Source: an uncultured Candidatus Saccharibacteria bacterium (lineage in GTDB: Bacteria > Patescibacteriota > Minisyncoccia > Phycocordibacterales > CAYSCM01). Taken from it: 64,000 nt of DNA. The DNA lies in assembly GCA_964429815.1 (NCBI GenBank), contig CAYSCM010000001.1, forward strand, positions 224,001-288,000, in the 5' to 3' direction. Made by a program: the position numbers and the translations under genes. Below, piece by piece: positions 2,979 through 5,415 of this stretch. Position 1 is the first letter of the stretch. Each line of letters starts with the position of its first letter. Under the pieces are notes generated by a model, which saw only the letters and a program-made list of their open reading frames with translations, did not search any database and had not been told where the DNA came from.

Positions 2979-3050
2979 GCCCCCGTGGTGAAATGGATAT
3001 CACAACTGGCTTCGGACCAGTTATTGTGGGTTCGAGTCCTGCCGGGGGCG
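2979..3050 (+). tRNA. tRNA-Arg (anticodon TCG)
   Basis: Hand-folded cloverleaf: acceptor GCCCCCG/CGGGGGC, D-stem GTGA/TCAC, anticodon stem ACTGG/CCAGT with loop CTTCGGA, T-arm GTGGG-TTCGAGT-CCTGC, discriminator G; begins 2 nt after the divergent cca start codon. Confidence 0.7.
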
Positions 3051-3205
3051 CAAACGGCACAAAACGCGGTGCATTTTGCGCGTTTGCGCCAGGCGGAGCG
3101 ATGTTTTGCGAGTACACAAAACCGTGAGCCGAGGCCGCGAAAATTCTGAGCGACGACGAAAAACTATTTTTGTGACCGCCTCGGCGTCGGGTGACAGATT
3201 CTAGA

Positions 3206-3233
3206 TTGAGAAAGCACTGACGCGTGCTATAGT
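3206..3233 (+). promoter_or_regulatory. sigma70-like promoter upstream of tRNA-Gly (TTGAGA-16-TATAGT)
   Basis: Sequence match to -35/-10 consensus about 20 nt upstream of tRNA 5' end. Confidence 0.5.
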
Positions 3234-3253: not shown

Positions 3254-3324
3254 GCGGCCATAGTTTAGTGGTAGGACGGATCCTTGCCAAGGATCAGGTG
3301 GGAGTTCGATTCTCCCTGGCCGCA
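3254..3324 (+). tRNA. tRNA-Gly (anticodon GCC)
   Basis: Acceptor GCGGCCA/TGGCCGC, anticodon stem GATCC/GGATC with loop TTGCCAA, T-arm GGGAG-TTCGATT-CTCCC, discriminator A. Confidence 0.85.
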
Positions 3325-3461
3325 CAAAAGGACACTTCCCTACGGGGTCAGGGAGAATCGAACGGGAAGGGGTCGGGAAACGGCAGTTTCCCGCGGAGGC
3401 GGAGGAAGGCAGGCAAAGCCTCTGGAAAACCTGGGTTTCCAGAGAGTGAGATAGCGGGGCG

Positions 3462-3478
3462 TCTCCCTGGCCGCACAA
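3462..3478 (+). repeat. 17-bp direct repeat of the tRNA-Gly(GCC) 3' end (TCTCCCTGGCCGCACAA); an inverted 15-bp copy of the T-arm (CAGGGAGAATCGAAC) lies at 3340-3354
   Basis: Exact second copy 151 bp downstream of the tRNA 3' end (3311-3327); inverted partial T-arm copy in between. Confidence 0.7.
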
Positions 3479-3633: not shown

Positions 3634-4047
3634 GTGAAAATGTTACATGTGAAATGGCAATCCACAATGAACGAACTGGGAAGACTCGGAGAGGACATTG
3701 TTTGCCGCTATCTTTCTGATAGGGGGTATCGGATTGTTTCAAGGAACTATCGTAAAAAGTGGGGTGAAATTGATGTAATTACGACTAAGGGCGGAATCCT
3801 CCATTTCATTGAAGTTAAAGCTGTTTCGCGTGAAAATCTTGACTCAATTTCACAAGAAACAAATTCCTATCGTCCAGAGGACAATGCTCATCCGGAAAAG
3901 CTCAGACGCCTTGCAAGAACCGTTGAAACATATTTACTGGAAAAAGGTGTAGAAGGTGGGCAGTGGAGATTTGATGTTGCGGCTGTCTATATCGATCAGA
4001 GGAAAAAGAAGGCAAAAGTTTCTCTTCTCGAGAACGTTATTTTATAG
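3634..4047 (+). CDS. yraN: YraN/UPF0102-family endonuclease-like protein (alternative start at 3667)
   Basis: 137 aa; GE(D)IVCRYLSDRGYRIVSRNYR...GEIDVI...FIEVK pattern typical of UPF0102; no clear SD. Confidence 0.65.
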   Translation: MKMLHVKWQSTMNELGRLGEDIVCRYLSDRGYRIVSRNYRKKWGEIDVITTKGGILHFIEVKAVSRENLDSISQETNSYRPEDNAHPEKLRRLARTVETYLLEKGVEGGQWRFDVAAVYIDQRKKKAKVSLLENVIL

Positions 4048-4106
4048 GACATTATTAAGGACATGTCTTTTGGCGCTCAACCGTGCTATGATTTTGCCAA
4101 CCATGG

Positions 4107-4147
4107 GGCGTGGTGTAACGGCTAACATACCCGCGTGGGGAGCGGTT
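4107..4147 (+). pseudogene. partial tandem duplicate of the tRNA-Pro 5' half (acceptor, D-arm and anticodon stem; defective loop GTGGGGA)
   Basis: GGGGCGTGGTGTAACGGCTAACATACCCGC is repeated exactly 60 bp upstream of the intact tRNA-Pro. Confidence 0.55.
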
Positions 4148-4165
4148 TTCCTTCGAGTTCTTCGT

Positions 4166-4238
4166 CGGGGCGTGGTGTAACGGCTAACATACCCGCTTTG
4201 GGAGCGGGCGACTCCCGGTTCGAATCCGGGCGCCCCGA
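4166..4238 (+). tRNA. tRNA-Pro (anticodon TGG)
   Basis: Acceptor CGGGGCG/CGCCCCG, anticodon stem CCCGC/GCGGG with loop TTTGGGA, T-arm CCCGG-TTCGAAT-CCGGG; flanked by a 13-bp complementary extension (CTTCGTCGGGGCG / CGCCCCGACGAAG). Confidence 0.85.
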
Positions 4239-4275
4239 CGAAGCATTTGAATAGACGCGCTTAAGCATGTCTTTT

Positions 4276-5415
4276 CTATTGGGGGAGCTGGTCGGTGAGG
4301 AGCTTGGTAAGAGTCGGCGCTACGGTCGCCTGAAAAGTCGCCGCTTGCACCGCGATATCGGCGGAGAGCATGCCACGAAGAGAGGTGCCGCTTCCCGCGA
4401 TAAGAGAGCGATTTATGTGTGCAAGAGTGATGGCATGGAGGTCGCGAATGTCGGTCGTCGGGCCGTCCGAGCTTGTCGAAACGATACCCACGAGGTCGCC
4501 CTTTGAGGAAAAAACACCACCGCCTGAAGAGCCTTTTTGCGCCACAACAGAGCCGCCGATCGAAATGACATCGATGGTCGAGGTGTCGAAGGTGAACACC
4601 TCTTTGATGGTGGTATAGGCCGAACTTACATACAGGTCTCGCAAGATGGTCTCCGCTCCGAGAAAGCCCGCAGGGTAGGCGGCAACGAGCATCGTGGCAC
4701 CTACCGTGAAGGCGTTTTCCGAGGTATCTAGCGAAGTCGCGGGGAATTGCGCTGGGAGCTGGTCGCTTGGGTTGGTGGGGGCGGTCACATAGAGGAGCGC
4801 AAAGTCATTTTCTCCCGTGCCGACCGGCTCGGTACTCTTTATCTGTGGGGCATTGTCACGCACCCACTGCGGCGAAATGTAGAGGAGACCTAGCTTGTAA
4901 CGCGGATATGCTGGGCTTCCGGTGCGAGCAACGCACTCCACAAAGTTGGGCATCGGGTAGTCTTTGAGGAGAAGGTACTGGCCCACGTGGGCATTGGCAA
5001 GAATAACTCCGCGCGAGTCGATAAAGACGCCGCTGGCGGTTATAGGACTAATGACCCCGCCGTACCTCGTGGTGCAGAGAATATTGACGATAGAGGGACG
5101 AGCTACCGCGTTGACGTCAATGCTTGCGTTTGTTGGCGCGGGTGGGGGTGGTGGCGTGAGAACAGTAACTTTTTGGGTTGGGACAGGAGATGCAGACTGA
5201 GCTTTTTTTGCCTCGGGTTTTTGAGTGAGCGTGGCAGCTTGCGTGGTTGTTGCTTGTGTTTGCGCGGCGGTAGTCGCTATTGCCCGGCCTTTCTCAGGCG
5301 GGGGCGCTAGTCGGGGAGTTCCCGGCAGGAGAGTAGAAAGCAGAGCGAGTGTACCTAGAAAAATGCTGAGGAGTAGCTTTCCCGTTAGTGAGTAGATGGC
5401 GGTAAGAAGCGACAT
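4276..5415 (-). CDS. membrane-anchored trypsin-like (S1 family) serine protease with Pro/Thr-rich linker
   Basis: 379 aa; N-terminal TM helix; PPPPP and T/Q-rich linker; ANAHV (His) and GSSGGGV (Ser) catalytic-type motifs. Confidence 0.75.
   Translation of the reverse strand: MSLLTAIYSLTGKLLLSIFLGTLALLSTLLPGTPRLAPPPEKGRAIATTAAQTQATTTQAATLTQKPEAKKAQSASPVPTQKVTVLTPPPPPAPTNASIDVNAVARPSIVNILCTTRYGGVISPITASGVFIDSRGVILANAHVGQYLLLKDYPMPNFVECVARTGSPAYPRYKLGLLYISPQWVRDNAPQIKSTEPVGTGENDFALLYVTAPTNPSDQLPAQFPATSLDTSENAFTVGATMLVAAYPAGFLGAETILRDLYVSSAYTTIKEVFTFDTSTIDVISIGGSVVAQKGSSGGGVFSSKGDLVGIVSTSSDGPTTDIRDLHAITLAHINRSLIAGSGTSLRGMLSADIAVQAATFQATVAPTLTKLLTDQLPQ

Follow-up and report, generated by a model that had tools for sequence, protein, structure and literature searches.

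Why should a tRNA-Pro gene be preceded by a nearly perfect copy of its own 5' half and be enclosed by a long stem between its leader and its trailer? Both features occur at one locus of the window, by which we mean the whole 64,000-nt stretch of DNA that was analyzed and whose positions are used throughout. The reading that we favor, at a probability of roughly 0.65, is that this locus is a partly decayed member of a family of nested tRNA-Pro genes of Parcubacteria.

ARAGORN called four tRNA genes in the window, one of them a tRNA-Pro(UGG) at 4166–4238, and this segment belongs to the tRNA family by its match to Rfam RF00005 (62 bits, E = 2.3e-12, threshold 29). A repeat scan detected a direct repeat of 41 nt, in which 4105–4145 and 4167–4207 are identical at 39 of 41 positions (95%) at a spacing of 62 nt, with no differences over the initial 30 nt. 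This 30-mer occurred exactly twice in the 64 kb, compared to 0 occurrences expected from 100 shuffles, and the two differences between the copies fall at tRNA positions 32 and 34, where TTTGGGA becomes GTGGGGA. The preliminary description of this DNA had reported the duplicated 5' half, which is real, but had placed it at 4107–4147, a shift of 2 nt. The tRNA is also bracketed by a perfect 13-bp stem, CTTCGTCGGGGCG / CGCCCCGACGAAG, at 4160–4172 / 4231–4243, which an inverted-repeat scan extended to 21-nt arms at 4152–4172 / 4231–4251 containing 18 Watson-Crick pairs, 2 G-U pairs, and 1 mismatch. RNAfold predicted a cloverleaf atop this stem, together with ~9 further pairs between 4141–4149 and 4254–4262, at an energy of −77.6 kcal/mol for the region (z = −4.2). 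The other three tRNAs of the window have no leader/trailer stem of this kind, which bears out the initial impression of an unusually long precursor stem.

The tRNA-Pro region is base-for-base the same in two further assemblies of the organism (SRR12313482 and SRR12313479), and the identity of three independent assemblies indicates that the duplication, including the upstream copy, is not an assembly artifact. A single intron-containing tRNA spanning both copies was also rejected. With introns of 0–3000 nt allowed, ARAGORN called the inner gene at 4166–4238 alone and included the upstream copy in no call; Rfam likewise recognized only the inner gene, and cmscan (E ≤ 10) found no match for the upstream copy at 4104–4145. 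The earlier view of the upstream copy as a defective half-tRNA agrees with these calls. We divided the locus into the following parts.

4084–4092, plus strand: likely extended −10 promoter, TGcTATGAT, for relic and tRNA, as read from the sequence.
4104–4140, plus strand: 5' relic, a copy of tRNA-Pro positions 1–37 seen in the direct repeat; the likeness runs to 4145.
4141–4165, plus strand: linker X, the 5' strand of the stalk, which pairs with 4238–4262 in the minimum-free-energy fold.
4166–4238, plus strand: functional tRNA-Pro(UGG) with CCA not encoded, called by ARAGORN and Rfam RF00005.
4238–4262, plus strand: discriminator and trailer Y1, the 3' strand of the stalk, from the inverted repeat, the fold, and columns 89–104 of alignment A5 (below).
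4260–4283, plus strand: possible degenerate remnant of the family hairpin hp1, tentatively placed by a weak MAFFT alignment.

The window −10 element resembles the −10 region of the tRNA-Gly promoter at 3206–3233, which a promoter scan flagged; the same scan made no call at 4084–4092 because there is no −35 match. Relatives carry TGnTAnAnT at the same place, either before the outer half or before an uninterrupted tRNA-Pro. A terminator or attenuator formed by the half-tRNA, for which we expected a GC-rich hairpin of at least 5 bp with a T run behind it and conservation in relatives, was discarded as a candidate, as the scan made no call at 4130–4151 and the GCGG-TTTT arrangement is absent from relatives.

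The genes neighboring the window tRNA-Pro encode a CCA-adding enzyme, a UPF0102 protein, a trypsin-like protease, HU, and RNase Y. We assign the genome to the Parcubacteria (CPR). Homologs of the window protease come from Parcubacteria or Paceibacteria-type candidate-phyla bacteria, and through these homologs we gathered 80 related loci (designated by L and a number), in most of which ARAGORN placed a tRNA-Pro beside the same protease. Among these loci, which were chosen by synteny only, a 5' half copy lay 45–70 nt upstream in 11 of 62 tRNA-Pro genes, and the nested layout described below was present at about one-sixth of the related tRNA-Pro loci. We added 11 metagenome loci through a DNA pattern, a selection for the duplication itself; in the resulting set of 68 non-redundant tRNA-Pro genes, which includes these selected loci, 18 had the 5' copy, 24 had a 3' copy, and 15 had both, whereas the reciprocal controls (a 5' half downstream or a 3' half upstream) were found at 0 of 68. 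Comparison with relatives, as the preliminary description had proposed, thus revealed half copies and stems at many related tRNA-Pro loci.

In the complete form of this family, the order of parts is promoter, copy of positions 1–37, G and X, complete tRNA-Pro, Y1, hairpins, and copy of positions 41–73. The 5' copy ends in TTTGGG at G37 and is followed by G and the linker X of 13–34 nt, making TGGGG the family-wide junction motif; L055, L085, L086, and L087 read UGG and then G at this place. The 3' copy begins at position 41 and reaches the 3' end, and nucleotides 38–40 are absent. Positions 41–43 of the 3' copy track those of its own lineage (AGA in L092, GAG in L032), indicating that the copy is tRNA-derived. 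Between Y1 and the 3' copy are a hairpin, CCAGAnnnnn...nnnnnTCTGYGG, whose upper stem varies by compensatory substitutions and whose motif accompanied 15 of 69 tRNA-Pro genes compared to 0 of 165 other tRNAs, and a short second hairpin (CCC-GAA-GGG, CGC-GAA-GCG, TCC-GCA-GGA, or AT-rich). The full-form insert is ~150 nt long, with a non-tRNA part of ~75 nt, and no Rfam family matched it in the window (E ≤ 10) or in seven nested loci (E ≤ 1). At L058 (3000–3230, minus strand), a tRNA-Gly(UCC) is nested in the same way, between a 5' copy and a 3' copy and together with a hairpin and a leader/trailer helix of 13 bp, which shows that the layout extends beyond tRNA-Pro.

X and Y1 pair with each other and prolong the acceptor stem of the inner tRNA by 14–16 bp or more. 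We examined this stalk in an alignment, A5, of 19 sequences including the window, which consists of the last 16 leader bases (columns 1–16, in the window the last 16 nt of X), the tRNA, and the first 16 trailer bases. Across the 16 stalk pairs, 88.5% of cells were paired, a value inflated by the choice of members that have a relic or a stem, and 14 of the 16 pairs showed changes on both sides, a measure that this choice does not inflate. Controls in which the partner strand was slid by 1–3 columns were 40–48% paired. When stalk and cloverleaf were tested together, 0 of 500 shuffles attained the observed percentage of pairing or the observed covariation score. Beyond A5, leader/trailer duplexes of −15 kcal/mol or lower were predicted for 20 of 69 tRNA-Pro genes compared to 4 of 165 other tRNAs, and the stalk is kept in L013, L053, and L062, though the relics at these loci are almost unrecognizable. 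Sequence comparison establishes that the layout is homologous and has fixed boundaries, that the stalk covaries, and that the outer halves have decayed. Judged by the alignment, the stem of the window is the conserved, covarying stalk of the nested tRNA-Pro family, and its putative role is that of a processing or folding clamp.

The window locus has a copy of positions 1–37 that ends in TGGG, is followed by GAGCGG.. (G and linker), and is the homolog of the outer 5' halves found in relatives, which likewise end at G37 and continue with G. Its stalk comprises 14 pairs, compared to the minimum of 14 bp by which we defined family members, and starts GT-tRNA-AC. In A5, positions −9 and −11 of the window row are G-U pairs and −7/79 is its one mismatch; the G-U at −11 coincides with the non-Watson-Crick hotspot of the family at −11/83, a pair that is mostly G-U or unpaired in family members. 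The stalk start ..TTCGT-tRNA-ACGAAG.. and the TGGGG junction are common to the window, L055, and L075. One feature differs from the family: the likeness of the window relic to the inner gene continues to position 42, beyond the family boundary at 37, which leaves a small residual chance that the window duplication arose independently.

The window lacks the hairpin CCAGA...TCTGYGG and the 3' copy from position 41, and no second tRNA-Pro 3' half was found anywhere in the 64 kb. MAFFT aligned window cttaagcatgtcttttctattgggg with the family sequence ccagaaRcat...atgYttctgtgg, although the capacity to form a hairpin is gone. The stop codon of the protease gene (4276–4278, minus strand) overlaps this putative hp1 remnant and lies 37 nt past the tRNA-Pro. 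From these comparisons, we read the hairpin and 3' relic of the window as lost secondarily, as in L086, which independently of the window also has a 5' relic and stalk and no 3' relic. A deletion beside the protease gene would explain the lost 3' part of the window locus. At L083, a methyltransferase gene, missing from the window, lies between the protease gene and the tRNA-Pro.

How did a complete tRNA come to lie within the halves of another? Filled and empty sites both exist among relatives: the promoter and leader found before the outer half in L014, L020, L030, and L044 are followed in L052 directly by an uninterrupted tRNA-Pro, and L052 could represent the original gene before insertion or the product of a precise deletion between direct repeats. 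At L016 (7900–8130), where several partial 5' copies also lie upstream, the acceptor strands of the outer halves match each other (CGGGGCG/CGCCCCG) and differ in type from those of the inner tRNA (CGGAGTG/CACTCCG). L064 (5200–5620, minus strand) has three layers, in which an outer pair of relics surrounds a stalked tRNA-Pro, and this tRNA-Pro is in turn interrupted at 35/36 by a third, intact tRNA-Pro with different flanks. Removing the inner insert in silico at 35/36 restored a perfect tRNA-Pro(UGG) in the middle layer, and these layers indicate that insertion of a tRNA into a tRNA occurred more than once.

These observations could be taken to mean that the unit is a mobile 'compensated' insertion cassette, or the descendant of one, that enters the anticodon loop of tRNA-Pro genes with a tRNA-Pro of its own and thereby spares the host, an explanation that we regard as possible but unlikely. 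The relics would then be the invaded gene, and stalk and hairpin would serve propagation or expression of the cassette. In addition to the second insertion at a different loop position in L064, the differing acceptor stems of L016, and the coexistence of filled and empty sites among close relatives, this explanation would account for one outlier pair, L055 and L075, in which X and Y are 91% and 84% identical, respectively, whereas the tRNAs are 80% and the proteases 56% identical. These genomes, moreover, contain a second family of small elements, whose members likewise duplicate the 3' end that they displace from the target. Against mobility, however, the insert has no coding capacity, no integrase or transposase gene lies beside the loci examined, and inner tRNAs resemble their own relics rather than one another across lineages. 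X/Y identity also declines with protease identity overall, as expected for an old, mainly vertically inherited unit.

Could the outer halves instead be a functional tRNA from which a large intervening sequence, inner tRNA included, is spliced out? In the window, the upstream half, with anticodon GGG if in register, would have to share the only 3' half with the inner gene. The L014 group offers the best case for splicing, because both outer halves are intact and strongly conserved there and their anticodon-stem strands, CCTTT and GAAGG, are able to pair. Relics, X, and Y are 91–100% conserved in this group compared to 64–73% identity of the protease, which exceeds the expectation for a neutral relic and suggests that the outer halves of the L014 group may have some function. 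Outer acceptor strands match each other in L064 as in L016, and a helix comparable to the long X/Y helix joins the halves of archaeal split tRNAs. In most lineages, however, there is no source for positions 38–40 and nothing able to pair with the 5' strand of the outer anticodon stem, so that joining the two relics fails to yield a tRNA. Outer T arms and D loops are defective in many cases: the T loop or the acceptor/3' end is broken in L055, L085, L092, and L095, and the D loop is degenerate in L033 and L013. A conserved GGG anticodon in the upstream copy was also rejected, as GGGG in the window corresponds to the family junction TGGGG, where relatives have UGG and then G, and no tRNA-Pro(GGG) was called at any locus. 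Junctions of L014, L087, and L064, read by eye, contain no convincing bulge-helix-bulge motif, in which a 4-bp helix separates two 3-nt bulges, and ARAGORN with introns allowed made no call of the kind that splicing would require.

Group I introns occur in tRNA genes of Patescibacteria, at reported lengths of 184–894 nt (Nakagawa et al., 2026; PMC13011429), but the inserts fall below this range, only 62 nt separate the window copies compared to the required ~184 nt or more, and no match to RF00028 was found in the window (E ≤ 10) or in seven nested loci (E ≤ 1). We therefore consider a spliced outer tRNA very unlikely. With positions 38–40 missing and decay widespread, we read the outer halves, from their sequences, as relics of a disrupted tRNA-Pro gene. 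The involvement of recombination at the tRNA gene, one of the origins suggested at the outset, is accepted in this sense, with the half copy of the window being the relic of a split tRNA-Pro.

Replication slippage, another origin initially proposed, would make the window duplication a recent, genome-specific tandem event and the stem a product of chance or of recent evolution. Two copies that are 62 nt apart and 95% identical would be consistent with slippage, as would the plain, unduplicated tRNA-Pro of L083, the closest available relative (protease 63% identical), although this last comparison is uninformative about the direction of change. The repeat, however, covers only 41 of the 62 nt, and the same layout and boundaries, usually with a 3' half copy downstream, recur in distant Parcubacteria, as do the junction motif and the covarying stalk at loci whose proteases are 40–50% identical to that of the window. 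Local slippage is thus highly improbable and was set aside. Least probable of all is a scar left by the integration at tRNA-Pro, and subsequent deletion, of an integrase-mobilized phage or island, because, although partial tRNA copies around inserted DNA are a classic sign of integration at tRNA genes, and anticodon-loop and T-loop crossover sites are known classes for such integration, it normally duplicates the 3' part only and places no complete tRNA inside another, the neighbors include no tyrosine or serine integrase gene, and the insert is ~150 nt of conserved, covarying, RNA-type structure.

Under the favored reading of a decayed nested tRNA-Pro, an older tRNA-Pro gene would have been broken in its anticodon loop, between positions 37 and 41, by an insert of G and X, a complete tRNA-Pro, Y1, the conserved hairpin, and the short second hairpin. 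The interrupted gene would persist as a promoter-bearing 5' relic and a 3' relic, and the inner gene would be the working tRNA, transcribed through the 5' relic. The window would keep the 5' relic, X, tRNA, and Y1, after a deletion that removed the hairpin and 3' relic and left 37 nt between the protease gene and the tRNA-Pro. No promoter for the inner tRNA was found within the ~25-nt X, and the promoter motif sits upstream of the relic. The precursor would begin just ahead of the relic, giving the inner tRNA a leader of 60 nt or more that contains sequence able to mispair with the 3' half of this same tRNA. The stalk would keep the authentic 5' and 3' termini of the inner pre-tRNA clamped in register and would offer a helix of ~21 bp (26 bp with the T arm) to a double-strand-specific cut of the RNase III type, after which RNase P and either RNase Z or 3' trimming would complete the tRNA ends and the neighboring CCA enzyme would add CCA. 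With X and Y shuffled in silico, the inner acceptor stem had a predicted probability of 0.46, down from 0.99, and shuffling X, Y, and the relic together gave 0.43. Because the drop was similar when the relic was also shuffled, this modeling only weakly suggests that the stalk insulates the inner tRNA specifically against the relic.

Relic and inner gene are nearly identical within a lineage and diverge by 20–35% between lineages. Gene conversion between the close direct repeats, spaced by 62 nt, would best account for this combination, by maintaining the identity of relic and inner gene.

Several known systems share features with the nested tRNA-Pro genes. Disrupted tRNAs of archaea (intron-containing, split, or permuted) are also broken at or near the anticodon loop, have complementary flanks that form a long helix, and can carry multiple or nested interruptions. 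They are processed at bulge-helix-bulge motifs, whereas none was recognized by eye in the present loci, which are bacterial, have outer halves that lack 38–40 and are often decayed, and contain within the intervening sequence a complete working tRNA of the same identity. Integrase attL/attR fragments are similar in that partial tRNA copies flank inserted DNA that restores a working tRNA, but here 5' and 3' fragments surround ~150 nt with a whole tRNA, RNA-like structure, and no integrase. As in the processing stems of rRNA operons, which are RNase III substrates, leader pairs with trailer over about two helical turns and prolongs a terminal helix; the stem here, by contrast, encloses a single tRNA. 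The group I introns of Patescibacteria (PMC13011429) share the phylum and insertion in the anticodon loop, but in the nested loci there is no group I match, the non-tRNA part measures only ~75 nt, and the interrupted gene stays disrupted. A literature search for nested, disrupted, or split tRNAs in Patescibacteria/CPR returned only the work on group I introns, and the nested tRNA-Pro layout is apparently previously undescribed.

A working tRNA inside the halves of another, on a covarying stalk of ~16 bp, would be a new organization of tRNA genes. To our knowledge, work on disrupted tRNA genes has until now concerned archaea and eukaryotes, with only self-splicing introns described in bacteria. 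The layout poses the question of how organisms whose RNA-processing machinery is minimal convert such precursors to mature tRNAs, and relics of this kind can mislead tRNA counts and estimates of genome completeness for candidate-phyla genomes. If the cassette were in fact mobile, it would represent a new insertion mechanism that hits essential genes without killing the host.

The window also contains elements of a different type. After tRNA-Gly(GCC) (3254–3324) is a GC-rich structured element of ~150 nt (3325–3478), without a match in Rfam, in which an 18-nt segment (3346–3363) is complementary at 17 of 18 positions to the T arm and acceptor 3' strand of the tRNA (3304–3321) and which ends in a direct copy of the tRNA 3' end, TCTCCCTGGCCGCACAA, at 3462–3478. 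Elements of a similar type lie after the tRNA-Gly genes of L052 and L083 and after the tRNA-Pro of L041. A copy of a related element family follows tRNA-Arg (2979–3050) at 3076–3184, so that, taking the tRNA-Pro, tRNA-Gly, and tRNA-Arg loci together, three of the four tRNA genes in the window bear some insertion-type element. A covariance model built from 11 copies of this related family, including the one in the window, had 42 matches in 705 kb of Parcubacteria loci, 35 of which followed a tRNA (Gly, Pro, or Arg) on the same strand at a distance of no more than 120 nt. The antisense segment at the 5' end of the element pairs with the second copy of the tRNA 3' end, located after the element, and several internal helices covary. 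At L071 (290–412), the same family occurs at the 3' end of a protein-coding gene (...VIDEVLK*), where the antisense segment matches the end of the gene rather than a T arm, and a second copy of the final ~22 nt of this gene comes after the element, indicating that both the antisense 'guide' and the duplicated end are target-specific. As judged from these sequences, a classical integrase or transposon would not explain such target specificity, and the antisense segment of this second family hints at an RNA-guided or template-copying mechanism of insertion. A speculative extension, to which we give low odds, is that Parcubacteria harbor a new class of small non-coding 'compensated' insertions into essential genes, each of which supplies a substitute for what it disrupts, and that the half-tRNA and stalk of the window are one decayed product of this class. 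The replacement may be a whole tRNA, placed in the anticodon loop, or the last 17–28 nt of a tRNA or protein gene, and repeated invasion may create tRNA-within-tRNA-within-tRNA loci.

The UPF0102 gene (3634–4047), which encodes a YraN-type protein with a PD-(D/E)XK nuclease fold, lies between tRNA-Gly and tRNA-Pro, and its position inside the tRNA cluster is syntenic across these Parcubacteria; we found no evidence for a link between this gene and the tRNA elements. Between the UPF0102 gene and the tRNA-Pro promoter, at 4043–4072, is a repeated motif, AGGACAT / GACATGTC (TATAGGACATTATTAAGGACATGTCTTTT), and the 10-mer CATGTCTTTT reappears just past the tRNA-Pro unit, at 4264–4275. Versions of the palindrome, ggacat...atgtcc, precede tRNA-Pro in L083 and many other loci and may, from their sequence, constitute an operator or terminator.
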